Shown: positions 1-27,429, numbered from the stretch's first letter. The stretch: DNA of 64,000 nt from Cyanobacteria bacterium J06627_8 (GCA_038520475.1 JBCBLF010000001.1:9509-73508), one strand, 5' to 3'. The notes: generated by a model from the sequence alone, not told the origin. Numbers and translations are program-made.

Positions 1-271
1 ATCCGGGAATCGGAGACCCTAAAATGGTGATATGAAAATTGGTGCGATCGCCCGGTGGTTTGCGCGTGGAAATTTCTGGCGTGAGGTCATACCAAACAGT
101 TGAATTGTCTTCATTGCCAGGGGCAAACAGATCCAGTTGCATCGTTGCGAAGCGATCGCTCTGGTTCACGACTTCCACCACGAATTGAGTGGGATCAGCC
201 CCAGGTGTATAGTGCAATGTCTGGGCTGGAACCGTTAGACCAATGCGTGTATCTGTCGTGGTAAACGTCAT
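1..271 (-). CDS. Hypothetical protein, partial (ATG at 271, continues past the window start); Thr-rich N-terminus MTFTTTDTRIGLTVPAQ...
   Basis: Manual reverse translation of 1-271 gives an open frame of at least 90 aa from the ATG at 271. It contains HIP1 sites. It lies downstream of, and on the same strand as, the sensor/baseplate block. Confidence 0.35.
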   Translation of the reverse strand, partial: MTFTTTDTRIGLTVPAQTLHYTPGADPTQFVVEVVNQSDRFATMQLDLFAPGNEDNSTVWYDLTPEISTRKPPGDRTNFHITILGSPIPG

Positions 272-592: not shown

Positions 593-2512
593 TCACTCTC
601 CATTAATGAGTTGCCGGAGGCGATGTTTGACCCAACTCATGTAAGTATTCTCATTATGAGAATCACCCCCTTCAGACGGTTGAATAACGGTCAAATTTTC
701 AGATAAGTTTTCACTTTCTGACTGGCGCTGCCTCAACGTTGTAAGAATCCGGTCTTCCAGTTCAGGATATTCCGTCAATATCTGACGTAGCCCGCTGCGA
801 TTGATCACGAATAAGATTGCAGAGGTCACCGATCTGACGTTCGCGACTCTCGGCACGTTTAACAGAAGTGCAAACTCTCCGACCACTTCACCCGCGTGAA
901 TTGAAGTTAGATATCGAGGCGATTCTTCATCCGTCAACACTTCCGCTGTTCCACTCAACAGGAAAAAGAGTTCATCTCCCTGATCGCCAGCACGACAGAT
1001 GTCTGTTCCGGGTAAGACATGTCGCTCTTCGCCAAATTCAATCAACCGATATCGCTCTTCTAAGGTAAAGTCCTGAAAGTAAGAGATGCACTGTAGTCGT
1101 TCAACCAGTTCAGGTGCTTGGGCAACGGCGATCGCATGTCGCACCGATCGAGATTGATGAATCAGCGTATCCCAGTTCGTTGTGTTTCCAATTTGGGTGA
1201 GTTGAGCATGTCGAAGAGACTGCTGAGCATGTTCGGCCTGTAACTGCTGTAGCTGCTGTTGAAGTCCTTGTTGGCGACTATGAATGACCTTTGCCATATC
1301 TTGGAAAATACGAGCTAAGCGACCGAATTCATCGTTTCGCCGGAGTACTGGAGCGAGTAGACCAGGGTTGTACGTATCATTCTCAATTTGACAAGCCGCC
1401 CGCGTTAGACGAATGATAGGCTGAGCAATCCAGCGAGCGACAAAGATGCCCATGAGGCTCGCACCAATGGCAACCAGTAAACCAACCTGAATGGTTGAAC
1501 GAAGGCTCGCCAACGTGATCTCGTTAAAATCCGTCGATGGCACCATGACGACCACAATCCAGTCGATTCCTGCCGGGTCAAAAATAGGATTAACGCCAAT
1601 GAATTCTTCAACCCCCGATATGTCCAAAATGAATTCTTCTGATGTGGTCAGCGTTGAAAACTGTCCCATTTCGTCTAAGAGCTGATTGGCGACTTCGCGA
1701 ATTAAAGGATTCGCGCTCTCTGTCGCAACAATGCGCTGTTTCTCCTGATCAATAATTGTAAAGAGCTCCGTATTCATTGAGGTCGCAATCAATTCACCGC
1801 TACGCTCCATTACAAAGGCGTGCCCTGCTGGGCTGATTTCTAAATCTTCAAGAAAATAACCCAAGCTTGCTAGCGAGACATCGATGCCAAAAACGCCCTG
1901 AAATTCCCCAGTCGACGCATAGAGCGGCTGAGCTGCCGTCACCCCAAGAGTCGGTTCGGTTGCGAAGGCATAGACCGGACTCCAAGTAAATTTTCCAGAC
2001 TCTACGGCTTTTTGGAACCAGACCCGAACCCGTGGATCATAGACCTGAGATTGAATCAGGTCGGTCAGCTCTCGCTGATCGCTTAACCGATAGGTGAGCC
2101 GGTTCGGTATTGTATCTGGGTTACGAATTTGGATGGTCCAACCGCCATCCCTCGTATCGCTAAAGCCCAGATAGTCTCCATCAGCACTACCAAAGAAAAT
2201 TCGCTTCGGCAGGTCGGGTTGCTGAACCAGGTTCCAGATTGTATCGGCCAGGCTTTCTGGAGATGTCTGATTAGTGATAGGCGCATCTCCCTCTAGCGTC
2301 GCCAGCATCGTTTGATAGACGACTTTCGAGTCAGCCAGATGATTTTGAATGTGTCGTTCAATGGATTCCGTTGCTTTGCGACTAATTTCTTCTGCTAGCT
2401 CATGGACAATTTCTCGTTCGCTCAGATAAGAAAGTAAGCTGCCTAAGCCAACCGCCGCGATAATCGGCATCACAATGAGAATCGGTAAGGTAACACGGAT
2501 CGGAAGACGCAT
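593..2512 (-). CDS. Membrane sensor with a periplasmic Cache-like domain, a HAMP domain and a C-terminal cyclic-nucleotide-binding (CAP-family) domain; no enzymatic output domain
   Basis: N-terminal TM helix, about 300 aa of extracytoplasmic region, a second TM helix plus HAMP-like segment, a QQQLQQLQ coiled coil, and a C-terminal cNMP-binding motif (GDELFFLLSGTAEV ... GEVVGEFALLLNVPRVANVRSV). Confidence 0.7.
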   Translation of the reverse strand: MRLPIRVTLPILIVMPIIAAVGLGSLLSYLSEREIVHELAEEISRKATESIERHIQNHLADSKVVYQTMLATLEGDAPITNQTSPESLADTIWNLVQQPDLPKRIFFGSADGDYLGFSDTRDGGWTIQIRNPDTIPNRLTYRLSDQRELTDLIQSQVYDPRVRVWFQKAVESGKFTWSPVYAFATEPTLGVTAAQPLYASTGEFQGVFGIDVSLASLGYFLEDLEISPAGHAFVMERSGELIATSMNTELFTIIDQEKQRIVATESANPLIREVANQLLDEMGQFSTLTTSEEFILDISGVEEFIGVNPIFDPAGIDWIVVVMVPSTDFNEITLASLRSTIQVGLLVAIGASLMGIFVARWIAQPIIRLTRAACQIENDTYNPGLLAPVLRRNDEFGRLARIFQDMAKVIHSRQQGLQQQLQQLQAEHAQQSLRHAQLTQIGNTTNWDTLIHQSRSVRHAIAVAQAPELVERLQCISYFQDFTLEERYRLIEFGEERHVLPGTDICRAGDQGDELFFLLSGTAEVLTDEESPRYLTSIHAGEVVGEFALLLNVPRVANVRSVTSAILFVINRSGLRQILTEYPELEDRILTTLRQRQSESENLSENLTVIQPSEGGDSHNENTYMSWVKHRLRQLINGE

Positions 2513-2569
2513 GATGAGATTAGGAGAGTGAAGAAATGGAAGACATGGAAAAGAGGAATTAGGGGGAGG

Positions 2570-4039
2570 TCAATCAGATGAGTCCGGCGGCGATGATTGA
2601 AGTTGGGTTAGGCGATGTCGTTGCCAGGTGGTATGCAACGCATTGATGCCAAGCTCCTCAGCCGCACGGAGATCGCTTCGCGACAGGGGTTCACCTAAGT
2701 AGCCTTGGAGTGCCGATGAAAGATTTCCCAAAATGACGCTAAATCCTTGCCCAACCAGAATTTTGTGAAGCTGTTGGGCAAAGGTGGGCAGTCGCGAAAA
2801 GTTAAATGGCTGACATCGGAGAGGATGCAGAAATGGGAGGTTTTCCCAAGGTGTTAGCGAAATCCCAAGCGGCTGAAGAAACGGTTCGTAGCAGGTGCTA
2901 ATGCTTGCAAGCTTTTCTTCAATGAGAACTAAAATTTCGTCTAGCTCTTGGGTTAGTTCACTGTGCATTCGATCCATCTCTGAGCTGGAAGCTGGAGAGC
3001 TGGAATCCATATGGGGCGATCGCAATGAGTGGGTGTCAGAAATGTCTTGTACCGTGCTAATCTGCCTAATGGCATCACTTAAGCGCTGATGGACGACCAG
3101 CAATTCGTCTAGGCCCTCTTCCTGGGTCGGATGTTCCACAATGATGCTGCCTCCGACTTCAACGTAGTGTCGAAGGGTGCTGGTGTTGCGCTCTGATAAA
3201 CGCTGAAATGATGTATGCCCCATGAATAAAGCGGCACAATCCGATAATTCAGGCTGAATATCTGGGGTCAGGTCTGAAAAAATGAGCGGAGGTAGGGGCT
3301 GTAGTTTGGGGTAGAGGCCCGGAAGCGATCGTAGCAGTGACTCGATGCCTTCTAAGAGAGGAGATTCATGACAAATCGCCACTCGGATAGAAGCCGTTGG
3401 GCGAGCGCAAATCTGGGGCCGATGCCGTAAGTCCAAGCTGCCTGGAGTTGGATTCAACACATCGGTTGCAGGTTCAAGGGCAGAGAATCCGGCGTCTAAA
3501 CGAATGCGACACAACTCAATTTCATCGACTTGAGGCGGGCAGTCCTTTTCATCAATACGATAGGTCTCTCGGATAATCTGAGTTTCATCATTTCTCTCTA
3601 GAGTCTCCGGGTCAACATAGCGCAAGATAAGATAAACGATTTGACTTCCAACTTCACCTGTTGAAACCACGCGCCCAGCATCCTCCCTGGCTTTACCCCG
3701 TCTGCTGTCCAGTTCAGGTTGAATGGCAGACGCGATCCGAAAATTAACGGCTTCTGGGACAACAATGGGGTTGCCATTAATATCGATCGCCAATCCAGGC
3801 TGAATTTGAACCCAGCGCTGATCGCGAAACTGACTGGCGACGGTATCAGGAGGAGGAATAATGCATACACCGAGTCCATCGACGATTCCAGGCTGATTGA
3901 GAGCCTGAAAGTGAAGATTTTGACGCTGACGGTGATAGGCGTGAGCCAGTTGCCATCGTTCTGCGTTGATCAGCAATCCATCAGAGACATGCAGGCGATC
4001 GAAAGGATTGAGTTTTGGGGGAGGAAGGGGATTCAGCAT
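2570..4039 (-). CDS. Hypothetical 489-aa protein, co-oriented between the baseplate genes and the sensor
   Basis: Long ORF with HIP1 sites, 57 nt upstream of the sensor gene and 141 nt downstream of the gpI-like gene. No family recognised. Confidence 0.55.
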   Translation of the reverse strand: MLNPLPPPKLNPFDRLHVSDGLLINAERWQLAHAYHRQRQNLHFQALNQPGIVDGLGVCIIPPPDTVASQFRDQRWVQIQPGLAIDINGNPIVVPEAVNFRIASAIQPELDSRRGKAREDAGRVVSTGEVGSQIVYLILRYVDPETLERNDETQIIRETYRIDEKDCPPQVDEIELCRIRLDAGFSALEPATDVLNPTPGSLDLRHRPQICARPTASIRVAICHESPLLEGIESLLRSLPGLYPKLQPLPPLIFSDLTPDIQPELSDCAALFMGHTSFQRLSERNTSTLRHYVEVGGSIIVEHPTQEEGLDELLVVHQRLSDAIRQISTVQDISDTHSLRSPHMDSSSPASSSEMDRMHSELTQELDEILVLIEEKLASISTCYEPFLQPLGISLTPWENLPFLHPLRCQPFNFSRLPTFAQQLHKILVGQGFSVILGNLSSALQGYLGEPLSRSDLRAAEELGINALHTTWQRHRLTQLQSSPPDSSD

Positions 4040-4180
4040 GGGCGTTGGGTGTGAGTATCGAGCGAGAGGAAGGCGAAAACTGGAGACGTGAGGAAGGGGC
4101 GAGGTACTTGAGGATCAACGGCAGATTAGCTGTCTGACGTTCTACACGGTCAGAGTGATGGGTACACGCAATTCAATGTC

Positions 4181-5296
4181 TTAACCTGACGGCGTGACGG
4201 CATCATTGGGACGGGGTTCGATGTGTAAGTCGTAGGTGCAGTGGGCGGGTTTCTCCTGGGTGATAATGCGATGAATAAGAGAGAGAGGCAGGCCCTCAGC
4301 TTCTGAGTGATCTGGCCGAAGGGTCACGATGAAGTGATAGGGGCGACCTCTGCCGAGGGTGGCATTGGGGCCGAGGTGCACGTTTCCTAACAAGAAGGCT
4401 TTGCTCGATGATTCTTGAATCGCAATGGCGCGATCGCCCTCGTCTACGGTTTCGTCTAGTGGCAACCCTGTTGCGTAGTGCAAAAATAATCTCAGCCCTC
4501 GTCGCGTCCCACGCCACCGATAGAGGGTCATGGCATTGCGAATGAGTCGCCGCTGATGGGATGGCATCAAGGGCAAGGTATCCATGGGCCAAGCCACCCA
4601 ATGGGCTAAAAACGGCAGGAGAGCCTCCGGTGCCGTTAACGGATCAAGGTAGCGAGTCAGCGCATCCGTAGTTTCAAAAATGGGGCGCAGCGCCTGCTCA
4701 AACATCTGCAAGTAGCGATGCATGAAATCCACTTCTCGGTAGATAGCTGGGAGAAACTCCATGAGTCGCGTGCGCGGACGGACAAACACATTAAGCCTTC
4801 GATATTCCAGCTTTCGTTGCGATCGCCGGCCCCATTCCTGATCTGAAGGCTGGATTACGGAAGAGTCGAGTAAAGAACTGGCTTCTTGAGCCATCGGTTG
4901 TTCATAGGTCACGACCACATCGAGGTGATAGTCGAGGGTCAGTGTTTGCTGTGGCCGTAGCGCATGGGCGTCTTCAAAAAAAGAAGCAGGCACCTGGAAC
5001 TGAAGGAGCCCTTCGATACGCTGATATGCAGCAATCTCATCCTGTTCACACTGAAATTGATACCAGGTTGTCGGACAACTTCCCTCAAGTCGGATGCGAA
5101 TTGGGAGGGATTCAGCGCTGGTATTTTCAAACAGCATCAGCAGATCGCTAGATTCTCCGGGATACAACACAAGGTTGAGTCCCCCTTGATCAAGCTCGTC
5201 ACCGTCTCGTGCGATAGGGGCGATCGCCTCTGAGGCTTGCATTGGAGCAAACCGGAGGTTGAGCGCAGAAGCAGCACGAGATTGAACCATAACCAA
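4181..5296 (-). CDS. Phage P2 gpI-like tail/baseplate protein (Tail_P2_I family)
   Basis: Family signature LPAIYREVDFMHRYLQMFEQAL...DPLTAPEALLPFLAHWVAWPMD...RRLIRNAMTLYRWRGTRRGLRLFL. Confidence 0.65.
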   Translation of the reverse strand: MVMVQSRAASALNLRFAPMQASEAIAPIARDGDELDQGGLNLVLYPGESSDLLMLFENTSAESLPIRIRLEGSCPTTWYQFQCEQDEIAAYQRIEGLLQFQVPASFFEDAHALRPQQTLTLDYHLDVVVTYEQPMAQEASSLLDSSVIQPSDQEWGRRSQRKLEYRRLNVFVRPRTRLMEFLPAIYREVDFMHRYLQMFEQALRPIFETTDALTRYLDPLTAPEALLPFLAHWVAWPMDTLPLMPSHQRRLIRNAMTLYRWRGTRRGLRLFLHYATGLPLDETVDEGDRAIAIQESSSKAFLLGNVHLGPNATLGRGRPYHFIVTLRPDHSEAEGLPLSLIHRIITQEKPAHCTYDLHIEPRPNDAVTPSG

Positions 5297-5390
5297 ACCA
5301 ACTCAACCGTTGAAAACTACATCAGGCGATAACCATCACAACTTGACAAACATCTCAGATCCAAAGTCATACAGAGCAGCTTGTTCATCG

Positions 5391-7613
5391 TCACACCCTG
5401 ACAAATCGAATAAAGTGTCCGGAGCGCAACTCTCGGTCATACCATGAACAGATGAGTCCGTTAGCTCCGGGATAGACCGACCCTGGAGAAATTTTTCGAA
5501 TCCATTGGCCGTGCTGATATCGAAGCTCAAATAATTGCACTGTGCCTAAGTATTGAACACCGGATGCCCGTTGGATCAGCGCAATGACATCGGACGGATA
5601 AACCGGACGACCAAACGGCCATCCTTTACCGTTTTCACCGCCCGTCACGGGGTTGAGAAAGCGATAGAGCGTCGTCAACAACGTCTGCTGCACTGCGTCC
5701 TGAGCCTGAGGTGATTGATAGGCCGGAGCCAAGCCAATTTCAGCCCGGACAGAAACGCCAACGTAGGTCGGTTCGGCCAAAATGACCTGAGTTCCTAGTA
5801 ACTTGCGTTCATCCAAATAAGCGGTGAGCTGCTGTTTGAGGCTTGAGGTCAAGGCAAATTGCTCGGGGGAAATGCCCCGTCTGTAATCAACGCCAGCAGT
5901 TGAAGGCTGTGGTACGACGAACACCTTGACAGAACCGGCCTCAATCGCCTCCGTACGACCTGAATCTCCTCCGGCAACTTGAGCGGAAAGACAACGGGCT
6001 TGGGCGATCGCCCCTTCTCCTCCTCGAATCACCAGCGCTTCAAAGTCTTCTGACGTCACCGCGCGATCGCGGCTTCGCAACAATTTTGGTACTCGGATGA
6101 CAGCTTGTTCCAAAGACTCGGCGTCTACGCCATATCGAGCAGCGTCGTGATTAATAACATCTGCAACGTAGGGAATCGCTGTCTTCAGCACCCGCACGGT
6201 TCCAGCTTGAACGTTACCTCGAACGCCACCTCCGGTTCGATAGCGCACCATGCGGAGAACAGAGTCTCGGGCCGGAATTGCGCCATACTGGCGCTCCGTA
6301 GAAATGGGGGTTTCAGTCGCTAAATAACCATGTTCTTGAATATGATATCGGTTGTGCGTCAGGTCTTTGACATGGGATGATTCTCGAATCAGAGGACCAA
6401 ATTGTATCGTACCTGCCTGCGCATCGAGTACATAATGTAGGCTATCGAATGCCGAATCAGCAAAGTCAGAAACTTCTTGCCAACGCTGAGGGAGGCCATC
6501 AGGAGGAGTAACCTCTAGATATTCTCCGTCTCGACGAGGTAAGACTGGTGCGTTCAAAAGTTGAAAGGTTTGATTGGGGGTCCCATCGCTGACGCCAAGG
6601 TGTTCATCTTGAATCAATGTAGACTGACTCGCACGAATAGAACCGCCAATCGCCCGTACCGATAATCCAACAATGCGGGGGGAACGACTGTAGGCTGGTT
6701 GAGTCGCCGTGGGAGGCGTGCACACGCAGCGAATCCAGCGCCCTCGATAACTTGAAAAAGCCGATGCAGGCCAGATTTGAGGTAAATGGAGTACAACATT
6801 CCCCCCTTGGAGGGGATCGAGTCCCTCTGTCGTCATGGCGCTAAAGCTAAAGCCTTGGGTTCCGTCATCCTCTTCTTTACGAAGAATCGGAATCCAATCC
6901 ATCCCGTCCCATGCTTCCCACCGCCGGGGAGGAGCACTGGGATTAATCCCTGTTGCAGTCGCCGCTTCCCCTTTGACCGTCAGTGCCAAGACGTTACCGT
7001 CTAGGTCTTCATCGGGTTCAAACACGAGATAAAAGGTGTTACCTGAGGCTGGCTGTTCGTCAAAAAGAAGTTGTTCTGGCCCCTCCCAAGCACCATCGGC
7101 ATCTTGTGACCACCGATTTGTCAGGCGATCGCGTAAGGTTTGGGGTGTTGTCTCGTCAACTGAAGCAGTTAGAAAATGCAACAGTCGTGGCTGACCGACT
7201 CTTAACAAGCGATCGGTGGTGAATATGACAGCATCTTCTGTTTCGGTGCGCATGGTTGCGACTTCAATTCCAGATGGAATTTGATAGGCTTCAGGTAAGA
7301 CCGTGTTGAGATAAAAAGTGAGGTCAACTTGAGCGGGAATAGGCGGATTAAGGCGAATTCCAAGTAACTCAAGAAATGCAATGTATTGGCGACGCGGCAC
7401 TTGGTTAAACCGAAGCAACATCTGCTCCGTCATCCACCCAAACAGCTCAATCAGCGTCATGCCTGGATCGCTGGGATTAAAGTTTGTCCACTCAGGACAG
7501 TATCGCGGGATGCGCAAGCGAGACTCGACCATCAAGTCATCTAACTTACGGTCATCAAGATCAGAGTTGGGCAAATTGGGTAGAAAATTGAATTCCATAT
7601 CACGACACGGCAC
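5391..7613 (-). CDS. Baseplate J-like protein (gp6/gpJ family), 740 aa
   Basis: N-terminus RIPRYCPEWTNFNPSDPGMTLIELFGWM is typical of the Baseplate_J family. Size fits. The start overlaps the gp25-like gene by 14 nt. Confidence 0.75.
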   Translation of the reverse strand: MPCRDMEFNFLPNLPNSDLDDRKLDDLMVESRLRIPRYCPEWTNFNPSDPGMTLIELFGWMTEQMLLRFNQVPRRQYIAFLELLGIRLNPPIPAQVDLTFYLNTVLPEAYQIPSGIEVATMRTETEDAVIFTTDRLLRVGQPRLLHFLTASVDETTPQTLRDRLTNRWSQDADGAWEGPEQLLFDEQPASGNTFYLVFEPDEDLDGNVLALTVKGEAATATGINPSAPPRRWEAWDGMDWIPILRKEEDDGTQGFSFSAMTTEGLDPLQGGNVVLHLPQIWPASAFSSYRGRWIRCVCTPPTATQPAYSRSPRIVGLSVRAIGGSIRASQSTLIQDEHLGVSDGTPNQTFQLLNAPVLPRRDGEYLEVTPPDGLPQRWQEVSDFADSAFDSLHYVLDAQAGTIQFGPLIRESSHVKDLTHNRYHIQEHGYLATETPISTERQYGAIPARDSVLRMVRYRTGGGVRGNVQAGTVRVLKTAIPYVADVINHDAARYGVDAESLEQAVIRVPKLLRSRDRAVTSEDFEALVIRGGEGAIAQARCLSAQVAGGDSGRTEAIEAGSVKVFVVPQPSTAGVDYRRGISPEQFALTSSLKQQLTAYLDERKLLGTQVILAEPTYVGVSVRAEIGLAPAYQSPQAQDAVQQTLLTTLYRFLNPVTGGENGKGWPFGRPVYPSDVIALIQRASGVQYLGTVQLFELRYQHGQWIRKISPGSVYPGANGLICSWYDRELRSGHFIRFVRV

Positions 7614-8109
7614 TTAGCCGTGCAACAGCTGAATCATCGGCTTCAAGACTGGGGGATTCCCACAGCGCTTCCTCAATCTCTCCCTCAGGCTGGAGATAGA
7701 ACGGATAGACTAAACTACGTGGTTCATACTGATCTGTTAAGCGATACTGAATAACGATCTCAATTCGCCCTCGAACTGGATCAGGATCAGCTCGGACATC
7801 CTCTAAAACAATGCGTGGCTCCCAACGGACGAGGGCATCTTCAACCGCGATACAAATCTGTATCAGCGTGTTCATATTCATCGGAGCAAAAACAAAGTCA
7901 GTTAGCGTTGATCCAAACTCAGGCTCACCGACTCGCTCACCGACATCAGTTCGTAAAATTAGCCAAATTGATTCCTCAACACTTTGCTCTCCTGTGCTGA
8001 GCTGTAGGCTACCCTGGGTGTTGATTTGCAGCGGAAATGCCCATCCGGTCCCTAATAAGGCTGATGTATCTATCGGGGCGATCGCCCCTTCATTTGGATC
8101 TACCATCAT
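7600..8109 (-). CDS. GPW/gp25-like baseplate wedge protein
   Basis: GTGWAFPLQI ... ESIWLILRTDVGERVGEPEFGS ... ALVRWEPRIVLEDV matches the gp25/GPW lysozyme-like family. Confidence 0.8.
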   Translation of the reverse strand: MMVDPNEGAIAPIDTSALLGTGWAFPLQINTQGSLQLSTGEQSVEESIWLILRTDVGERVGEPEFGSTLTDFVFAPMNMNTLIQICIAVEDALVRWEPRIVLEDVRADPDPVRGRIEIVIQYRLTDQYEPRSLVYPFYLQPEGEIEEALWESPSLEADDSAVARLSAVS

Positions 8110-8382
8110 GCCTCCTTATCCCTGTCGGCTTGTCGTCACGATACCTTAGGGATGTTGAGGTCACTATTCGACGAAAGTAGAAACACGACTGTCCGCCGAT
8201 TTGCCGATTTTTTGAAATTCCTTAGTTTAATTCCCGCCAAACTAAGCCACTTGTCATGAAGTCATTCACAATCGCACAGCACTTCACGTTTAGATTCATC
8301 TGAATAATCCATAGCAACAGATACTTGCAGAGAGCTGTACCTATCCTGCAAAACTATCGGTGAACAATAAGCTAATTTTGAA

Positions 8383-8469
8383 CGGAGAGAGAGGGATTCG
8401 AACCCTCGTTAGAGTTGCCCCTAAACAGCATTTCCAGTGCTGCGCCTTCAACCACTCGGCCATCTCTCC
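8383..8469 (-). tRNA. tRNA-Ser (anticodon GGA), long variable arm, CCA not encoded
   Basis: Manual fold: acceptor GGAGAGA/TCTCTCC, D-arm GCCGAGTGGTTGAAGGC, anticodon stem CAGCA/TGCTG with loop CTGGAAA, T-arm GAGGGTTCGAATCCCTC, discriminator G. Confidence 0.85.
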
Positions 8470-8594
8470 AGGGATCTTTTTTGGAGCAACTGGTTCATCG
8501 AACCACAGGATTGTCATCATAACAAAGTTCTGTCCTCTGCGAAACCATTTCACCTGCACGATTTGGCAAGCTTCTCAAATTCATCACAGATAAT

Positions 8595-8622
8595 GAGACT
8601 TGTGGCGTGCGCCACAAGTCTC
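8595..8622. repeat. Perfect palindrome GAGACTTGTGGCG-TG-CGCCACAAGTCTC (13-bp arms)
   Basis: Read directly from the sequence. It lies between the protease stop (8761) and the 5' end of the tRNA. Confidence 0.7.
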
Positions 8623-8760
8623 AAACCCTTATCTCTGCTTGAACGTTGCCACATTGAATCACTTGCGCATCTTGCGCGTCTCACCGAATTTATGATGAGA
8701 GAATAATAGAGAATTGAGAGCGTCTAGAAGCTTCAGTCCCCCATTCCTCTGTACCCTTCG

Positions 8761-10362
8761 CTAGACAACCACAAAATTTAGAGATGAGAGTGGAAAATCA
8801 TGGAAAACCCGAACAGAATTATTGGTGCTAATGGATAGATCGGTAAATGACCGGCCAGACGTGCTGGGTCGTTCCCTAACGACGGCTCGGCTGAGGATGT
8901 CATCACCATCGACATAACCAAATTCAGCAGAAACCTGGATTCGATCGTCGGCCACCACAAAGTCATTGATCTGATCGATGCCACCACTGCTGGTATCAAA
9001 TACAAAGATGTCGTTCCCCTCTCCACCAAACAGCTGATCGTTCCCAGTGCCGCCACTTAAACTGTCGCTACCGGCTCCGCCCCTTAGCTGATCATTGCCT
9101 GCAAAACCATTGATCACGTCAGCAACAACGGTTCCTTGAACAACATCATTTCCTTGTGTCGTTAGTGGTAAAGACGTGCCCTGCGCCTGAAATCCGTCAA
9201 CAACATATCCGATATCGGCAAGGAGCGCTAAGTCGAGACGTGTGAGGTTTCGAATGCCTCCAGATCGCATGACTGGAAGCTGGTTTTCAAATCTGACATC
9301 GCTTCGGAGGTGATCAAGATCGGCATCAAGGGGAACGGGAGTTCCTCCAGTTACAGCAAGCGTATTTGGACCATCAAATAATGCACCGCTTCCAATATCG
9401 TTGAAGACTTTAGCTGTACCAATGCCCAGCACATGGCCAATTTCGTGGAGGGTTGTGCTCAGAAAAGCCTCTTCCCAGAAAGACCCATCAGAACGTAAAA
9501 ATGCTGAAGGCCGGTAGGAAATATGCCCTGCCCAGGGTTCAAAGTTAGATGCAATGAGCCGCTTTTGAAAAACAGTCCCGGTTTCCGCTGCAAGACCCGC
9601 AATACCACCCCGCGCGACGGAATTATCAGGTATTCCAAAGGGCGGGTTCTGCGAGCCAACAAAAATGACGAGATCGTCAATCTCAGTGTCTAACGCAATA
9701 GTCTGTCGAGCACCAGTTTCTGGATTGAGAATGTCAAATGGAACACCCGCCGGCACATTTGGAAATTCATCGAGAATATGATTTGTCCAAAGATTGGCAG
9801 CCTTGTTTAAGACGGCCCGCCGCTCAGGTGTAAAGTATCCTCGGGTGTCAAAGCGATAGTCGAATTTAATGTTAAACGACCGATTAACGGTAAGGGGTTG
9901 AATCGGTTGACTGGCTGGGAGTGGGCGATTTGCATCTACCTTAAGTTGATAGGATGTGCGTCCTCTTTTGTGAAGCAGGCGAATGAAATACGTTCCACGC
10001 TTGAGGCGATCAAATTCAATCGATTCGTTTTGTCCCTTCCCTTGCCTAGATATTCCGATACGGCTGATTTTTTTGCGATTTGCTTTTCTGTCGGAATTGC
10101 GTAACGGTAAGGCACTTGCTTTTTTGGAATCTCTATTCCGTTTTCTCTTCTCCGACAACACAACAACATCAATGTTCGAATTTTTACTGAGATCAGAAAC
10201 GGATATATTCACACGTTTGCTACTCGTCAGCTTAAACCGATACACGTCGATTTTGTCCAGCGGATCAAGCGAGTTCTTAAACGTCCGACCTCGATTTCGA
10301 AACCTTCCCAAGTTTTTCGATTGCTCAATACGATTACCGACATCTCGTCTCATCACAGCCAT
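8761..10362 (-). CDS. Secreted zinc metallopeptidase-like protein with RTX (haemolysin-type Ca-binding) repeats and an N-terminal PPC-like beta domain; no signal peptide, so a likely T1SS substrate
   Basis: HEIGHVLGIG zinc motif. Repeats GGAGSDSLSGGTGNDQLFGGEGNDIFVFD. N-terminus KR-rich with DVYRFKLTSS...GTYFIRL. No GCGATCGC across about 1.6 kb. Confidence 0.65.
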   Translation of the reverse strand: MAVMRRDVGNRIEQSKNLGRFRNRGRTFKNSLDPLDKIDVYRFKLTSSKRVNISVSDLSKNSNIDVVVLSEKRKRNRDSKKASALPLRNSDRKANRKKISRIGISRQGKGQNESIEFDRLKRGTYFIRLLHKRGRTSYQLKVDANRPLPASQPIQPLTVNRSFNIKFDYRFDTRGYFTPERRAVLNKAANLWTNHILDEFPNVPAGVPFDILNPETGARQTIALDTEIDDLVIFVGSQNPPFGIPDNSVARGGIAGLAAETGTVFQKRLIASNFEPWAGHISYRPSAFLRSDGSFWEEAFLSTTLHEIGHVLGIGTAKVFNDIGSGALFDGPNTLAVTGGTPVPLDADLDHLRSDVRFENQLPVMRSGGIRNLTRLDLALLADIGYVVDGFQAQGTSLPLTTQGNDVVQGTVVADVINGFAGNDQLRGGAGSDSLSGGTGNDQLFGGEGNDIFVFDTSSGGIDQINDFVVADDRIQVSAEFGYVDGDDILSRAVVRERPSTSGRSFTDLSISTNNSVRVFHDFPLSSLNFVVV

Positions 10363-23139: not shown

Positions 23140-26100
23140 TTACTGAATAGTGAATCGTCTGCAAAAATCTGCTAGTGATTCTTCATCAATGTCTGAAGGC
23201 ACGTTCTCATCAGACGCGTCATTAGGCAACTCATCAGCATAGGTTTGGGGAGTCTCTGATGTGCTCAATCGGTTTCCATTCTGAGACCAGGGGTCTCGAA
23301 TATCTTCTCCTGAAAACCGCAAGAAACTATCATCTCTCTGTTGAATCGACGGGTCTGAGCCAGTCGCGTTGCGATCGCCATTTTCAGCGGATGGCGGACG
23401 GTTGGACTCAGACATCATAGGTGATGATTGAGCTGAAATACCGTTTTGCCGCGGGTCATTCCAAGCATCATTGTTGGCAAACAAATCCGTATTATTCAGT
23501 TCAATATCGCTATTGATGACGCTGAAGAAGTCTTCTAGGGTTTGAGTTCCGATCTGTTGAACATCGATGTCTTCTTGTTCAACCCCATCATTTGTTGCAG
23601 TTTCCGCAATCGCGTTTGCTTCCTCTTGAGTTTGAGAAGTTGAATCCTCAGCTCCAAAACCGTCAAAGAAATCTCCCCATCGTTCGAACTGGTCGACTAA
23701 TTCATCTCCAGGGTTAGGCCCAGCATCGGATTCACCATCAGACTCCTCTGAGTCATTGGCTTCCCAAACGATTGAATCGACGGAATGATCGCTGACGCCT
23801 GATGAGTGGTCGGAGTCAGATGGAAGACGGGCTGCTCGAATATAGGTCTCTTCTGGATCGATGTATGTCTCTTCTGGATCGATGTATGGTTCTTCTAGAT
23901 CGACATCCGTTTCTTCGAGGTCGACGTATATCTCCTCTGTATCGAAGTAACGATCGCCACCGGAGGCATCATCGGCTCCATACGGCCATTCGTTGGCCTC
24001 TTCATCAACGTCGGTGCTCTCGGAGTCGGTTGTATCGAAGCGATGATCGACATCGGCAGCAGCATCGTCTCTATACGGCCATTCGTCAGTTTCTTTCTGA
24101 ACGTAAGTGCTCTCAGGGTCGATTGTATCGGAGTGACGATCAACATCGGCAGCAGCATCGTCTTCATGTGGCCATTCGTCAGTTTCTTTCTGAACGTAGG
24201 TGCTCTCGGGGTCAATCGTATCGGAGTGACGATCAACATCGGCAGCAGCATCGTCTTCATGTGGCCATTCGTCAGTTTCTTTCTGAACGTAGGTGCTTTC
24301 GGGATCGATATATTCGCTGTGCTCGTCCCTATCTGACGCATCGTCAGAGGAGCTAACCCACGGATGAGACGGATGAGCAGAGGCTTCTGTCTCATTGAGA
24401 CCATCACCATCCCAGACAATCGAGTCTACCGAATGATCGGCAATATTGTCATCTCCGTCAGCATCATAAAAATTGAGATTGGAGGATAGCTCAACGTTGT
24501 CTGAAAGTTCTAACTCACGGAACGGTTCAATATACGGTTCTGTATTTGGAGCATCTATCGATTCTGTATCCAGAGTTTCAAGATAAGAAGCACCAGCTTC
24601 ATCCACAACTGTATCCAACCACGCTGGCTCATCGAATGCTGACTCGCTCGGTTCTGAATCGATTTGCTCAGCGTTAGCCTCAGACCATGGCGCTCCATCA
24701 GATGCAGCAACGTCAAATATTTCAGACTCTTGCGAACCGAACGGAGTAGTCGCACCTTCGTCTACGTCGAAATCAGCATACGCATCTAACCCATCACTGT
24801 TTTCAGGGCTTCCGAACTCATGGGGAGAAGCGTGGACTGATGCATCTTCAAGTTGTCCGGAGAACCGGACCGTTTCATCCACATCAAACGACACAAATTC
24901 CTCTGAATCTTCGCCAATAGTGAGGTCTTCTGGAGGATGCTCGATAATTTGCCCAGGGTTATCTGACTCACTGTAGTTGTCTTCGGCCAAATCAGGAGAG
25001 GCAGGATTAACAGACAATGGTGCTGCGGCCTGTGCCTCTAAATTGTTCCTGTAAAGACCATTTTCGTTTTCGTCATCAACAGATGCCCGATAAGCATCAA
25101 GCGAATCGTATTCGTATTCACGCTCAGTGTCGTCTGTAGACTCGTGTAAATCGACGTGAGCACTTGTTGAAGATACTGACAGAGACGAATCGGTTACGAG
25201 CATTGACGATTCCACTGATGGCGCAGCAAATGGAGTGGCAGAGGGCATCTCATTGGCAAGTTGCTCTACCTTAAGCAGTGTTTCCTGTGCCTTTTGTGCA
25301 TTGATTGGACTCTTCTGCTCTTCAAAGTGCTCCGTTGCCTGCTCTAAATCAGCGATCGCCAGCTGATAGTTACCGATGGTCTGATAGACCATTGCCCGCT
25401 GATAGAAAACAGCAGGTGTATTAGGAGAATGAACAAGCGCTTCAGTGTAATCAGCGATCGCTCCTTCATAGTCTTCCAGTTTTTGACTTGCGGCTCCTCG
25501 ATAGAAATAGGCAATGGCGGAGGTTGGAGCCGCTTGAATCGCTAAACTGAAATCTGCGATCGCCCCATATTGGTCTTCCTGTTCCGACTGCAAGTAGCCT
25601 CGGTTGCAATATGCCGAACACTGTTCCGGATTCAAAGCGATGGACTGGGTGAAGTCTGCTAACGATGCCTCAAGATTCTTTTGTTCATAGTGAATGATGC
25701 CTCTCAAGTTGTAAGCAGCAGAATTATCAGGATTAGCAGCGAGAATGACGTCTATATCTGAGGCCGCACCCGCTTTATCGCCCAGGTCATATCGAGTAAT
25801 CGCTCGATTCCAGTAAGCGTCGACATCATGAGTAGGTGGATTAGGCTCATCAAACCGTTGAGTCAGATGCTTAACAATCTGCTCATCCGTAGTTCTCAGC
25901 TTGAGTTCAGCATCCTTTAGCGAAGTTTGAGTCTTGAGCCGTGCATCCAACCCAAGAATCGCATATTCGTCATCGGAAATGAGGTAGTTTTCGGCCGTTC
26001 CGAGAATCTTAAATTGGAAATTGTTTGGGTAGTAGCGCTTGATGGCAAGCAGTCGCTTCAGGGTGCCCTGAAGCGAGCCAGTGGAAAGCGGATTGATCGA

Positions 26101-27429
26101 CCATCGTCGATTAATGAGGCTCAAGAATCGATCATCTTGGCGATCGCTTACATGGCACCAACCAATATCGAGCTGCCGCTGCTGTTTGAGGAATCCTTCA
26201 ATTCGTCGCAACATATCTGCATCTAGCTCGGTGTGAACAGACCACGGCCAAATGAGAATCAGCCTCTGTTGCGTTGATTCGAGGGCATCTGTGAGTGCCT
26301 GACGACTGCCTGGAGTAATTGGATCAGCGCTAGAGTTTGGGTCTGACGACAGATCAAATACCAAATCATAGGGCAGTGATGGCGAACGGTCAGCAATCAT
26401 TTCCTGTAAATGCTGTACTTCGCCTCGAAGCACGTCTTCAATGGTCGATTTTAGCTCTGGAGAGTGATACAGCGTACGAAGCTGACGGTTGATCGCGCGA
26501 ATTTCCCGTGTAAACGATTCCTCCAGTTGCGATCGCAGCTGCGGCACGTCTGGAAGAGCCTGAAGCCGATTATTAATCTTCTGCATGTCGCGACGCAGAG
26601 CATCTTCGGTCTGGAGCTGACTCGTTTGCTGCTGCTGAATCACTCGCAAGTCGGCCACAAGGGCATTGAGGTCTCGTTTAGGAACCAAATCTGCAACCAC
26701 CCGCACCAGTTCACCGACCTCTCGCTTGATGGAGCTGGTATCAGCCTGAGGAGGCAGCGATTTAATTTGACGGTTAAGCTGAGTGACTTGATCCTGTAGG
26801 TTAGTAAGCGTGTGACTGCTATATTCGTTAAGCGTTTTAACTGTTGCGTCAATCTTACTGGTATCAGTCGAAATATTGGCGATCGCCTGCTCTAGTTCCT
26901 GTGTCCGTTCATTGGTCACGAACTGCGGAAGCGATGCTGCGATACTGCTCAATGAGTTGTAGACTTCGACATACTGAAGTTGAAGCTGAGTAATCTCCTC
27001 GCGAGCCTCGCCGATTTTATATTCGTCTAAGGCCTTGAAGCGATTTTCAACATCTTGCTTAATTTTGTGAATGTAGGCATACGTCTTTTGCATCTTTTCG
27101 CGACTATGCCGCAAAATTGACTGACGAACATCTCCGATCATCTCGGGAGTCGGCATGGTTTGAATCTTTTGTTCAAGGACTTCAAGATTCGCAGATAGTC
27201 TCTGATCAAGGGTTGCAAGGGAATCAGACAGCCTTTGGTCTTGCGCCTGTTCGATCCGTCGACGGTTTAAGATGCCAACCAACAATGCAAACGAAAGCGG
27301 CGCAGACGTATAGAGGAGCTGTTTTGAAATGAATGACAGACTCAGGCCCGCTCCTAATCCAAGGAGAGAGAAATCCTCAATAAAATTGAACCAATGACGC
27401 TTTTTCAAGGCACACTCTTTGTATTGCAA
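23140..27429 (-). CDS. 1429-aa membrane-anchored coiled-coil/TPR protein with a highly acidic, tandemly repetitive C-terminal tail
   Basis: N-terminal TM segments, long coiled coil, a roughly 150-aa unknown domain (LILIWPWSVHTEL...), at least six TPR units, then a D/E-rich tail with 31-aa (x3) and 7-aa (EETYIDP) repeats. Confidence 0.7.
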   Translation of the reverse strand: MQYKECALKKRHWFNFIEDFSLLGLGAGLSLSFISKQLLYTSAPLSFALLVGILNRRRIEQAQDQRLSDSLATLDQRLSANLEVLEQKIQTMPTPEMIGDVRQSILRHSREKMQKTYAYIHKIKQDVENRFKALDEYKIGEAREEITQLQLQYVEVYNSLSSIAASLPQFVTNERTQELEQAIANISTDTSKIDATVKTLNEYSSHTLTNLQDQVTQLNRQIKSLPPQADTSSIKREVGELVRVVADLVPKRDLNALVADLRVIQQQQTSQLQTEDALRRDMQKINNRLQALPDVPQLRSQLEESFTREIRAINRQLRTLYHSPELKSTIEDVLRGEVQHLQEMIADRSPSLPYDLVFDLSSDPNSSADPITPGSRQALTDALESTQQRLILIWPWSVHTELDADMLRRIEGFLKQQRQLDIGWCHVSDRQDDRFLSLINRRWSINPLSTGSLQGTLKRLLAIKRYYPNNFQFKILGTAENYLISDDEYAILGLDARLKTQTSLKDAELKLRTTDEQIVKHLTQRFDEPNPPTHDVDAYWNRAITRYDLGDKAGAASDIDVILAANPDNSAAYNLRGIIHYEQKNLEASLADFTQSIALNPEQCSAYCNRGYLQSEQEDQYGAIADFSLAIQAAPTSAIAYFYRGAASQKLEDYEGAIADYTEALVHSPNTPAVFYQRAMVYQTIGNYQLAIADLEQATEHFEEQKSPINAQKAQETLLKVEQLANEMPSATPFAAPSVESSMLVTDSSLSVSSTSAHVDLHESTDDTEREYEYDSLDAYRASVDDENENGLYRNNLEAQAAAPLSVNPASPDLAEDNYSESDNPGQIIEHPPEDLTIGEDSEEFVSFDVDETVRFSGQLEDASVHASPHEFGSPENSDGLDAYADFDVDEGATTPFGSQESEIFDVAASDGAPWSEANAEQIDSEPSESAFDEPAWLDTVVDEAGASYLETLDTESIDAPNTEPYIEPFRELELSDNVELSSNLNFYDADGDDNIADHSVDSIVWDGDGLNETEASAHPSHPWVSSSDDASDRDEHSEYIDPESTYVQKETDEWPHEDDAAADVDRHSDTIDPESTYVQKETDEWPHEDDAAADVDRHSDTIDPESTYVQKETDEWPYRDDAAADVDHRFDTTDSESTDVDEEANEWPYGADDASGGDRYFDTEEIYVDLEETDVDLEEPYIDPEETYIDPEETYIRAARLPSDSDHSSGVSDHSVDSIVWEANDSEESDGESDAGPNPGDELVDQFERWGDFFDGFGAEDSTSQTQEEANAIAETATNDGVEQEDIDVQQIGTQTLEDFFSVINSDIELNNTDLFANNDAWNDPRQNGISAQSSPMMSESNRPPSAENGDRNATGSDPSIQQRDDSFLRFSGEDIRDPWSQNGNRLSTSETPQTYADELPNDASDENVPSDIDEESLADFCRRFTIQ
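23950..24325. repeat. Tandem 93-bp repeat, about 3.5 copies, coding for a 31-aa unit (DTIDPESTYVQKETDEWPHEDDAAADVDRHS); an adjacent 21-bp repeat array lies at about 23860-23925
   Basis: Three near-identical consecutive units 24044-24136, 24137-24229 and 24230-24322, plus a diverged copy 23951-24043. Confidence 0.8.

Follow-up and report, generated by a model that had tools for sequence, protein, structure and literature searches.

Among solved structures, the contractile injection system (CIS) of Streptomyces coelicolor, CIS-Sc (PDB 9GTP), is closest to each of the three wedge proteins described here. Firing of this machine depends on the membrane protein CisA (SCO4242), whose gene directly follows those for the baseplate and which bears a ligand-binding-like domain on the periplasmic side (PMC12237407); stress, or some cellular signal of unknown nature, has been given as the trigger (PMC10066040, PMC12237407). 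An intracellular CIS is also known from a cyanobacterium, the tCIS of Anabaena sp. PCC 7120 (all3313-all3327; PDB 7B5H; PMC8894136), which is tied to the membrane via proteins encoded after the wedge genes. Genes for such machines may be divided between loci: 13 genomes with 'split loci' eCIS have been reported (Chen et al. 2019, PMC6899500), and in the split-locus eCIS and T6SS-iv of Amoebophilus asiaticus, tube/sheath and afp11 (J) lie at two distant loci and the machine is functional.

Gene content of the module

The locus analyzed here lies in a 64,000-nt stretch of DNA from Cyanobacteria bacterium J06627_8 (GCA_038520475.1, JBCBLF010000001.1:9509-73508), referred to below as the window. 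Five ORFs, all on the minus strand, occupy positions 7600-8109, 5391-7613, 4181-5296, 2570-4039 and 593-2512. With longest-ORF starts the gp25-like and J-like genes overlap by 14 nt, followed by gaps of 94, 141 and 57 nt, which reproduces the five co-oriented, tightly spaced genes of the initial annotation. The block is larger than was described there, however, as there is a sixth gene in the same orientation, which begins at base 271 (its DNA reads MTFTTTDTRIGLTVPAQ...) and runs off the left edge of the window, leaving its 5' end with the first 90 codons (1-271, minus strand). This gene matches the N-termini of WD40 proteins from three related loci (L001, L003 and L009) and from Nostoc (E 4e-17); its product of ~720 aa has N-terminal Ig-like domains, one hydrophobic segment (at ~350-375) and a C-terminal WD40 propeller (identified by Pfam). 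On the 99%-identical contig L009 the genes that follow encode this WD40 membrane protein, another membrane protein, of 875 aa, and a TPR protein that is secreted; in both L009 and L008 the module stops after the TPR gene.

Between the sensor gene (593-2512) and the WD40 gene the gap is 321 nt, compared with 56-91 nt in related species, i.e. ~250 nt extra. It contains a perfect hairpin with a 16-bp stem (498-532), 61 nt past the sensor stop codon; the 64 kb contain just one other TGTGGCG..CGCCACA hairpin. On the gene strand this hairpin has no U-tract; it might terminate or attenuate transcription between the two genes. The strong hairpin and the extra DNA in this species weigh against the reading of the module favoured below.

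Pfam and NCBIfam matches were judged against each model's curated cut-off. The Pfam models for the three proposed wedge families all scored above theirs, and NCBIfam agreed. The first gene of the module (7600-8109, minus strand) encodes a gp25/Cis9-like baseplate wedge protein (sheath initiator) of 169 aa (GPW_gp25, 74.7 bits versus a cut-off of 27.2, 5e-21). Twelve solved gp25, Cis9, Afp9 or Pvc9 relatives match this protein, the best being chain V of the Streptomyces CIS (9GTP, 2.7e-27), and it is 54% identical to its Nostoc commune orthologue. The second gene (5391-7613, minus strand) encodes a Baseplate J/gp6/Cis11-like wedge protein of 740 aa when read from a GTG (Baseplate_J, 34.8 bits versus 21.1, 1.4e-8; TIGR02243 equivalog, 622 bits versus 155.8, covering the full profile length). 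An ATG at 7598, one base past the gp25 stop, would give 735 aa and is the start called in L009; because of that gene call, and because homologues align from residue 6, J more probably begins at this ATG than at the upstream GTG. Homologues of J number more than 1200, those listed being ~55-62% identical, and the named ones come from many cyanobacterial genera. Among solved structures J matches Anabaena All3317 at 3e-5 and Cis11 of S. coelicolor (9GTP) at 5.9e-109, and the latter match is at odds with the earlier view that the block fits no known CIS. Directly after J, in the order gp25-J-I, the third gene (4181-5296, minus strand) encodes a P2 gpI/gp7/Cis12-like wedge protein of 371 aa from the longest-ORF start (369 aa if an ATG at 5290 is used), of which ~170 aa form an extension at the N-terminus. 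It is recognized by Tail_P2_I (31.9 bits versus 20.6, 1.5e-7) and TIGR02242 (116.7 bits versus 51.85, 6.9e-34), weakly by CIS12_fam (57 bits versus 860), and matches chain E of 9GTP at 2.4e-8. By these profile matches, the three wedge families are genuine.

The fourth gene (2570-4039, minus strand) encodes a 489-aa protein that was initially listed as unknown. It fills the tail-fibre slot, with an N-terminus resembling Cis13 and receptor-binding proteins and a DUF4159 head. The N-terminal match to the Cis13 family is weak (CIS13_fam, 35.5 bits versus a cut-off of 370), and the match to DUF4159 (PF13709) is at 17.5 bits below the gathering score of 25.9; most homologues do carry the PF13709 annotation. 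The head has a GATase1/ThuA-like alpha/beta fold, as in the solved representative of DUF4159, into which a helical hairpin of ~85 aa is inserted at residues 306-395, and the protein has no transmembrane or hydrophobic segment. A Foldseek match of the model to the N-terminal domain of TssK was weak and not significant (probability 0.72, E 0.01). In this CIS type the fibre slot is occupied by a conserved protein, represented here by the 489-aa protein, and this gives the DUF4159 protein of these clusters a structural identity.

Synteny, split loci and selection

The block gp25-J-I-DUF4159-WD40-large protein-TPR is syntenic in at least 12 loci, with the same genes in the same arrangement in different cyanobacterial orders. 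As initially noted, the block in this species is not flanked by sheath, tube or spike genes. The window holds 56 kb of unrelated genes upstream of it, tblastn across the whole 64 kb found no homologues of tube, VgrG or PAAR, and a Pfam scan of the larger ORFs between 10.8 and 40.6 kb showed them to be ordinary chromosomal genes, with no family of phages or CISs among them (sheath, tube, tape-measure, lysis or head). In L008 and L009, likewise, no CIS genes and none of these families were found downstream of the TPR gene.

In the initial annotation the block was read as an orphan wedge, which might have been repurposed together with the sensor as a membrane scaffold or signalling complex; the genome would then lack sheath, tube and spike. 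The absence of further CIS genes in the 56 kb upstream and after the TPR gene in L008 and L009 would agree with this, as would the intact module, its purifying selection and the several membrane and periplasmic proteins it encodes. We nevertheless regard it as highly improbable. To our knowledge, the only role of gp25, J and P2-I is in a sheath-tube machine. Orthologous blocks sit within fuller CIS clusters, adjoining tube, VgrG and PAAR genes in Nostoc commune (L004), Brasilonema (L015), Pseudanabaena (L012) and a metagenome contig (L020). Furthermore, Kovacikia minuta, the sole split genome examinable across a whole replicon, has the other half: on pA, the J-I-DUF4159-sensor-WD40 block lies ~125 kb from a sheath-tube-VgrG-ATPase block (J at 300 kb, gp25 at 414 kb, sheath at 427 kb and VgrG at 439 kb), with the ATPase, DUF4255 and tube genes beside the sheath. 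The sheath gene of Pseudanabaena lies ~55 kb from its baseplate genes, and split loci are a documented layout (PMC6899500). In this respect the arrangement, which had been thought undescribed, has precedents; the link between a CIS and a Cache or cNMP-binding receptor does appear to be new, as no such paper was found in our literature search.

The module thus belongs to a CIS for which relatives have the complete gene set, and we are confident that the block is the baseplate half of a split CIS. By comparison with these relatives, the genome from which the window comes probably holds the sheath, tube, spike and ATPase half elsewhere. Accordingly, a wedge-only block in a cyanobacterial genome should be interpreted as one half of a CIS gene set divided between loci.

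The module genes are under purifying selection. For the three genes computable against both relatives dN/dS was at most 0.13, with gp25 at 0.10 against L001; for the sensor the value between L003 and L001 was 0.06, comparisons with the sensor of the window giving no dS. These between-species values are upper bounds only, because dS was saturated or undefined. Within the species, 39 synonymous and 10 non-synonymous codon differences were counted.

A co-oriented tRNA-Ser gene (8382-8470), the sole Rfam match, lies between an upstream RTX gene and gp25; the same search found no riboswitch upstream of gp25. Together with an integrase-like ORF ~9 kb downstream in L008, a tRNA gene directly upstream of gp25 might suggest a prophage tail or tailocin in decay. 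Such an origin is extremely improbable, given that the ORFs are all intact with low dN/dS, that the larger ORFs, scanned up to 40.6 kb, include no capsid, terminase or lysis families, that different cyanobacterial orders share both the gene content and its arrangement, and that the other split loci have no tRNA. Insertion of a genomic island at the tRNA was also considered and judged unlikely as a general explanation, because other loci have no tRNA at the equivalent position. The upstream RTX/PPC protein was ruled out as a member of the module because it is present in this species only.

A membrane sensor in the adaptor region

The fifth gene (593-2512, minus strand) encodes a membrane sensor of 639 aa, for which the proposed Cache-HAMP-cNMP-binding architecture was borne out by Pfam matches above the cut-offs (dCache_1, 62.4 bits versus 45; HAMP, 31.4 versus 25; cNMP_binding, 61.6 versus 27.5) and by a hydrophobic segment on either side of the Cache domain (residues 1-31 and 339-364). 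The order is TM1, extracytoplasmic dCache_1, TM2, HAMP, a Q-rich coiled coil, the cNMP-binding domain and a C-terminal helix with the conserved motif W-I/V-R/K-x-R. No enzymatic or DNA-binding output domain was found in the cytoplasmic part. The phosphate-binding cassette of the cNMP-binding domain is intact, with G541, G545, E546, R555 and A557 invariant across 15 orthologues; the key Arg is followed by Val in the clade of the window and by Thr in most orthologues.

The tight linkage of this sensor to the wedge genes, already suggested by the short gap that precedes it, extends to other lineages. A sensor occupies the slot between the DUF4159 and WD40 genes in the clade of the window, Leptolyngbya 'hensonii', Spirulina, Pseudanabaena, Kovacikia and L020, and two sensors share it in Pantanalinema and L100, so that the slot holds one or two sensors in at least eight lineages. 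In L006 and L010 the sensor gene has a stop/start codon overlap of 4 nt. The sensors with the full cNMP-binding architecture are 26-35% identical to the window protein and all lie in this slot, at no fewer than seven loci, a count that covers every orthologue whose gene context was readable. In Kovacikia and L100 a Tll0287-like outer domain has been swapped in while the cNMP-binding module is retained, as are HAMP and the C-terminal motif in Kovacikia. Orthologues with Cache and HAMP only, from L006, L012 and L020, are still in the slot, and since those of L006 and L012 lack the cNMP-binding domain, cNMP sensing is not needed for whatever job the slot protein does. The presence of the sensor inside the predicted baseplate operon of many cyanobacteria is the part that is new here.

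The sensor also co-occurs with the helical hairpin of the fibre-slot protein: the insert is found at 7/7 sensor-bearing loci and 0/3 sensor-less loci. This correlation comprises 10 loci in total, and in the J tree, the deep nodes of which are weak, the sensor-less loci are interleaved among the sensor-bearing ones.

Proteins with Cache and HAMP domains abound, with 23,434 representatives matching at E up to 0.001, and paralogues of similar identity occur outside CIS loci, in L011 and in 79 of the 80 loci recovered in a metagenome search; these 79 were generic, and the search did not enlarge the set of true orthologues. A search of genome contigs with the sensor gave one locus, from a different species, with a sensor protein 77% identical. 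The abundance of such proteins, the close paralogues away from CIS loci and the existence of the same CIS type without a sensor in Nostoc, Brasilonema and Gloeobacter would be consistent with the sensor being a passenger, an ordinary Cache-HAMP-cNMP receptor with unrelated targets and no part in the CIS. Against this stand the retention of one slot despite the low sequence identity, which includes the orthologues with Cache and HAMP only, the overlapping stop and start codons, the exchange of the outer domain with cytoplasmic module and position retained, the co-variation with the hairpin insert and the lack of an output domain to act on a distant target. We therefore hold a passenger sensor to be quite unlikely and consider it likely that the sensor is a functional accessory of the CIS.

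Such an accessory could govern production of the CIS rather than docking or firing, by sequestering or freeing a regulator or assembly factor of the FHA, kinase or PP2C type according to ligand and cNMP conditions. Assembly of the T6SS is controlled by threonine phosphorylation, which this resembles. The same CIS type is accompanied by kinase-like PBP and FHA genes in Brasilonema and by Zn-ribbon-FHA and PP2C genes in Gloeobacter, and Kovacikia has further cNMP-binding proteins. However, no FHA, kinase or phosphatase gene is present in the module of the window, in L008 or in L009, and the position of the sensor in the fibre/adaptor region, together with its co-variation with the hairpin insert, points to a structural partner. 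Control of production is thus an unlikely role.

Proposed mechanism and comparison with known systems

The sensor is best read as a signal-gated membrane adaptor, by analogy with CisA of Streptomyces. For the module as a whole, we favour, with a probability of roughly 60%, the baseplate-periphery half of a Streptomyces-like, fibre-less, cytoplasmic CIS (dbeCIS subtype IId) that is gated by the sensor and has its other half elsewhere. In this machine gp25, J and P2-I would form the wedge and the 489-aa protein would sit in the tail-fibre slot, its Cis13/receptor-binding-protein-like N-terminal domain plugged into the wedge and the long helical hairpin of its DUF4159 head facing outward. Because it has no enzymatic output, the sensor would signal only by protein contact; we infer that it contacts the 489-aa protein and gates firing. 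It would dock the baseplate to the membrane, probably via the hairpin of the 489-aa protein and alongside the WD40, 875-aa membrane and secreted TPR proteins, with docking or firing set by an external ligand (through Cache and HAMP) plus intracellular cAMP or cGMP, the role that CisA has in the Streptomyces CIS. This specific docking-and-trigger mechanism is put forward tentatively. It is likewise possible, rather than probable, that the sensor is the first receptor built into a CIS, binding the fibre-slot protein via a co-evolving hairpin and integrating extracellular ligand and cAMP/cGMP to time docking and firing.

The firing signals of the Streptomyces cytoplasmic CIS and the Anabaena thylakoid-anchored CIS are still unknown, and a sensor in the adaptor position, conserved across cyanobacterial orders, is a concrete candidate for the link from signal to firing. 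If the proposed mechanism is correct, swappable outer domains (dCache or Tll0287-like) and tandem copies would let lineages tune the trigger, and cyanobacterial cAMP or cGMP signalling would be tied to regulated cell death or cell-cell attack.

The putative assignment to subtype IId draws on best matches as a proxy: besides the match of J to Cis11 of CIS-Sc, the next-best plasmid matches of J after cyanobacteria are from Kitasatospora and Streptomyces (37%), and the sheaths of the relatives are 41-42% identical to Streptomyces sheaths. The features compared for IId were a single afp11, a single-ORF VgrG, PAAR, and no Afp12, Afp13 or Afp14 by dbeCIS profiles. L004 and L012 each have one J, one VgrG (653-715 aa) and one PAAR, and the window has one J. 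With regard to Afp12-14, the module has a short P2-I/Cis12-like protein, as does 9GTP (chain E), and the N-terminus of the 489-aa protein is only weakly Cis13-like.

In the T6SS, TssK links the baseplate to TssL/TssM, and PpkA, PppA and Fha give post-translational control. The likeness to the present module lies in a wedge-membrane link made by a baseplate protein with a receptor-binding-protein-like N-terminal domain and in signalling proteins that gate assembly. Genes for TssB, C, E, F, G, J, L and M are all missing from the present module, however, and the signalling modules are of another kind. For the split loci described previously, the accessory genes of the baseplate half are undescribed, with no mention of a sensor, and the subtype-specific genes are without recognizable domains (PMC6899500).

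The N-terminus of the 489-aa protein is weakly homologous to the Cis13 family of the Anabaena tCIS. That system is nevertheless a different CIS lineage, given the far weaker match of All3317 to J. Its Cis12 has a ~500-aa extension, compared with a P2-I-like protein of 371 aa in all; its Cis13 has transmembrane helices of its own, whereas the membrane proteins here are separate genes; its Cis19 crown has no counterpart by NCBIfam among the proteins of the module; and no sensor has been described in its cluster (PMC8894136).

CIS-Sc shares with the present system the lack of a conventional tail fibre. Its cluster is contiguous and the host here is a diderm phototroph. In the papers on CIS-Sc, CisA alone follows the baseplate genes, and DUF4159 fibre-slot, WD40 and large Ig-repeat membrane proteins are unmentioned (PMC10066040, PMC12237407). 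CisA crosses the membrane once, with its N-terminus disordered in the cytoplasm and its C-terminal domain, which is substrate-binding-like, in the periplasm; it is without Cache, HAMP or cNMP-binding domains, whereas the sensor of the window is two-pass and carries all three, and the two are thus set apart by architecture.

Gene content and boundaries of the module

Five co-oriented ORFs were found on the minus strand, exactly where the initial annotation had placed them: gp25 (7600-8109), J (5391-7613), P2-I (4181-5296), a 489-aa protein (2570-4039) and a membrane sensor (593-2512). The wedge families proposed for the first three genes, GPW_gp25, Baseplate_J and Tail_P2_I, all scored above the curated Pfam thresholds, and in NCBIfam J matched TIGR02243 at 622 bits while the P2-I-like protein matched TIGR02242. 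In the sensor, dCache_1, MCP-like_PDC_1, HAMP and cNMP_binding each passed the curated Pfam threshold, with the Cache domain flanked by two hydrophobic segments. HAMP is followed by just a Q-rich coiled coil, the cNMP-binding domain and a short tail. The gp25/J overlap and the gaps of 94, 141 and 57 nt are correct for the longest ORFs, but the J gene probably starts five codons inside its longest ORF, one base past the gp25 stop. A sequence scan of the three gaps revealed no promoter-like or convincing terminator-like site, an absence consistent with co-transcription from gp25 to the sensor, which overlapping codons in relatives also support.

The module extends beyond the five genes originally claimed. 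A sixth co-oriented gene begins at base 271 and is truncated by the window edge; the first 90 residues of its product correspond to the N-terminal end of a conserved ~720-aa protein, in which a WD40 propeller is combined with Ig-like domains and a single hydrophobic segment. The remainder of the module can be read from a locus of the same species (L009), 98.98% identical to the window across 9.5 kb. It encodes the WD40 protein, a protein of 875 aa in which Ig-like repeats are combined with a TM segment, a TPR protein of 554 aa carrying a signal peptide, and a small secreted protein. The WD40 gene of L009 (9181-11342) appears as overlapping ORFs of 192 and 570 aa with a frameshift near 9630-9759, for which either faulty assembly or true pseudogene status could account; the window ends inside this gene. 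In a sister species (L008) the same gene order is followed by unrelated genes, and sheath, tube and spike genes therefore do not lie just outside the window on either side. Inside it, tblastn with tube, VgrG and PAAR queries from a related cluster gave no match anywhere in the 64 kb, and the larger ORFs at 10.8-40.6 kb are ordinary chromosomal genes, for example HisRS, inositol monophosphatase, GST, CNNM and Mur ligase. The window also holds a 1429-aa ORF (23140-27429, minus strand) with TPR repeats confined to residues 540-700 and the rest without a Pfam match; its TPR region gives a weak tblastn match (E 3e-4) to a Nostoc CIS-associated TPR protein.

Perfect TGTGGCG..CGCCACA hairpins occur just twice in the 64 kb (0 matches in 100 shuffles) and bracket a tRNA gene and the five genes. 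One, with a 16-bp stem, is located at 498-532, 61 nt past the sensor stop, and the other, with a 14-bp stem, at 8594-8623, after an upstream RTX gene. The sensor-WD40 gap (272-592) measures 321 nt in the window and 305 nt in L009, versus 56-91 nt in the sister species. The extra DNA comprises the 498-532 hairpin and an imperfect inverted repeat at ~355-400 (CTTCGACTTCGCTCAG..CTGAGCGGAGTCGAAG), and has no other copy within the window; in this species, expression of WD40 and the genes after it may be partly independent of the five preceding genes. At the other end, a co-oriented tRNA-Ser(GGA) gene (8382-8470, minus strand) lies 272 nt upstream of gp25, with a sigma-70-like site at 8543-8516, 46 nt upstream of the tRNA. 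L009 has this tRNA gene too, whereas in nine other loci no copy lies close to gp25. Transcription may read through from tRNA-Ser into the putative wedge operon. The RTX gene directly upstream of the module (8761-10362, minus strand) encodes a protein of 533 aa that combines a PPC domain with RTX calcium-binding repeats and has an HExxH-like motif (HEIGH). The gene is found in L009, is absent upstream of gp25 in other lineages, and might encode a secreted protease or possible cargo.

Relationship to contractile injection systems

More than 1200 homologues of J were found, those listed being typically 55-62% identical and the named ones originating from many cyanobacterial genera. Its nearest solved relative is Cis11 of the cytoplasmic CIS of Streptomyces coelicolor (PDB 9GTP, E 5.9e-109), a structure also matched by the gp25 and P2-I proteins, whereas the match of J to the thylakoid-anchored CIS protein of Anabaena has an E of 3e-5. 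The Streptomyces system is classed as dbeCIS subtype IId, and cyanobacterial loci of this subtype are known, e.g., in Calothrix NIES-4101. In four loci, from Nostoc commune, Brasilonema, Pseudanabaena sp. ABRG5-3 and a metagenome contig (L020), the block gp25-J-I-DUF4159 stands directly after tube, VgrG and usually PAAR genes, and in all of these except Brasilonema the WD40 gene then comes after the block. The claim that the module fits no known CIS category is contradicted both by this adjacency and by the closest solved relative. In Brasilonema, a divergent sheath operon lies ~18 kb off, and the genes for the ATPase and DUF4255 are found ~15-20 kb downstream of those for the baseplate; in Pseudanabaena ~55 kb separate the sheath gene from the baseplate genes. 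Between the tube gene and second tube/VgrG genes, Pseudanabaena (L012 6462-14057) and Brasilonema (L015 12781-16314) carry ORFs of 2531 aa and 1177 aa, respectively; for a CIS type that is said to have no Afp14, these might encode a tape measure or cargo. The 74-kb plasmid pOSC7112.04 of Oscillatoria nigro-viridis PCC 7112 (L013) has a gp25-J-I block that is more distant (J identity 50%) and lacks the DUF4159 protein, sensor and WD40 protein. Around this block lie two ATPase genes of CIS type and genes for three large DUF4157 proteins.

A split layout was observed in eight lineages, Kovacikia minuta included. Unrelated genes precede gp25 in the window species, two sister lineages, Leptolyngbya 'hensonii', Pantanalinema, Spirulina SIO3F2 and Gloeobacter kilaueensis. 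Kovacikia is split differently, with gp25 elsewhere and J preceded by unrelated genes. Across its whole 1.2-Mb replicon, J-I-DUF4159-sensor-WD40 is located at 300 kb, gp25 at 414 kb (414.3 kb), away from J, and the ATPase, DUF4255, sheath, tube, VgrG and PAAR-like DUF4280 genes at 422-442 kb, so that both CIS halves are retained. As the Kovacikia breakpoint is unlike that of the window, the rearrangements were independent. Nor is a split layout undescribed: split-locus eCIS have been reported in 13 genomes, and the split T6SS-iv of Amoebophilus is functional (Chen et al. 2019, PMC6899500).

The wedge genes of the window are intact and constrained, with between-species dN/dS ≤0.13 wherever computable (several pairs having a saturated or undefined dS) and 39 synonymous against 10 non-synonymous codon differences within the species. 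The reading of the module as an orphan wedge outside any known CIS is therefore unlikely. The module is very probably one half of a split CIS, namely the half for the baseplate and the membrane side, with subtype IId as the probable type. We give a probability of about 0.85 to its being half of a split CIS, the presence of the other half in this genome being judged from relatives. The initial observation was confirmed and its interpretation upheld in part, the orphan reading excepted.

The membrane sensor and the putative fibre-slot protein

The 489-aa protein, previously regarded as unknown, is an orthologue of the DUF4159 protein placed after P2-I in all these clusters (34% identity to the Nostoc protein over 481 residues), and PF13709 is annotated on most of its homologues. 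Of its structural matches, we infer that the first two concern the alpha/beta domain at the C-terminus and the last two the domain at the N-terminus. The NCBIfam CIS13 family matched residues 20-102 (E 6e-9, score well under the cut-off), and Foldseek gave a weak TssK N-terminal match. The protein is read as a putative tail-fibre-slot protein with a baseplate-attachment domain and a DUF4159 head, the latter interrupted by an insertion of two long helices (residues 310-391).

In many lineages the slot between the DUF4159 and WD40 proteins holds a membrane sensor. The dCache-HAMP-cNMP-binding form is 74-81% identical within the window clade, is present as two tandem copies in Pantanalinema, and is 32% identical in Spirulina SIO3F2, where the stop and start codons overlap the upstream gene by 4 nt. 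Leptolyngbya 'hensonii', also with a 4-nt overlap, and Pseudanabaena encode dCache-HAMP only, and in L020 residues 3-413 (Cache and HAMP) are covered by the tblastn match; the clusters of Pseudanabaena and L020 are contiguous with VgrG. In Kovacikia the HAMP and cNMP-binding module is the same and the outer domain is Tll0287-like, and a further locus (L100) has a tandem pair, one Tll0287-type and one dCache-type. The orthologues have in common the HAMP motif, the Q-rich coiled coil and a C-terminal W-I/V-R/K-x-R-x-x-L helix, and their phosphate-binding cassette is intact, its Gly, Glu, Arg and Ala showing no variation among 15 sequences. Among 1.84 billion representatives, full-length matches were found for ~21 clusters at 50% identity, and all those with a name are cyanobacterial; Cache-HAMP paralogues also occur outside CIS loci.

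No sensor was found at the CIS loci of Nostoc, Brasilonema and Gloeobacter. The same three genera are without the helical-hairpin insert of the DUF4159 protein, having 20 residues at that place versus 67-90 in 7/7 sensor-bearing loci. Sensor-less loci are interleaved among sensor-bearing ones in the J-protein tree, whose deep nodes are weak, so that sensor and insert have changed together at least twice. Conserved as an accessory to the module, the sensor quite likely has some functional role in the CIS. Three cNMP-binding-domain proteins are encoded over the two Kovacikia CIS loci: the sensor-slot protein (L016 25357-26931), a HAMP protein, encoded ~7 kb downstream of WD40, in which two stretches match cNMP-binding (L016 37404-39152), and a protein of 955 aa, encoded ~2 kb downstream of the DUF4280 gene, whose cNMP-binding domain is C-terminal (L018 28949-31816). 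Spirulina SIO3F2 has, two genes upstream of gp25 and on the other strand, a gene for a MASE8-guanylate/adenylate cyclase (L010 2649-3899), a possible local source of cyclic nucleotide for the cNMP-binding domain.

Possible action of the sensor

What does appear new in the arrangement is the embedded receptor: in the searchable literature we found no description of a Cache-HAMP-cNMP-binding receptor in a CIS, of its swapped or duplicated variants, or of its co-variation with the fibre-slot protein. Together these provide a concrete candidate for the signal that makes cytoplasmic CIS fire. As it lacks both catalytic and DNA-binding output, the sensor can act solely through protein contacts. One less probable role is the control of CIS assembly; kinase-like, FHA, PP2C and further cNMP-binding proteins are encoded in related clusters. 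Brasilonema encodes a kinase-like PBP-domain protein and an FHA protein upstream of the tube gene (L015 8783-11618), Gloeobacter a Zn-ribbon-FHA protein and PP2C at the module end (L005 20155-22199), and the Nostoc commune locus (L004 1897-4281) is also among the same-type CIS loci with other signalling genes. The kinase, FHA and PP2C genes recall the control of T6SS by threonine phosphorylation.

We tentatively propose instead a ligand- and cNMP-gated membrane adaptor, which would dock the baseplate at the membrane and license firing. This proposal is based on the contact-only output, on a gene position where other CIS encode tail fibres or membrane adaptors, on the co-variation with a surface feature of the fibre-slot protein, on the three further membrane or periplasmic proteins encoded after the sensor, and on the parallel with Streptomyces CisA, the closest that has been studied experimentally. 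The membrane protein CisA bears a periplasmic substrate-binding-like domain, is encoded just past the baseplate genes, and is absent from the purified particle, yet needed for contraction and function (PMC12237407).
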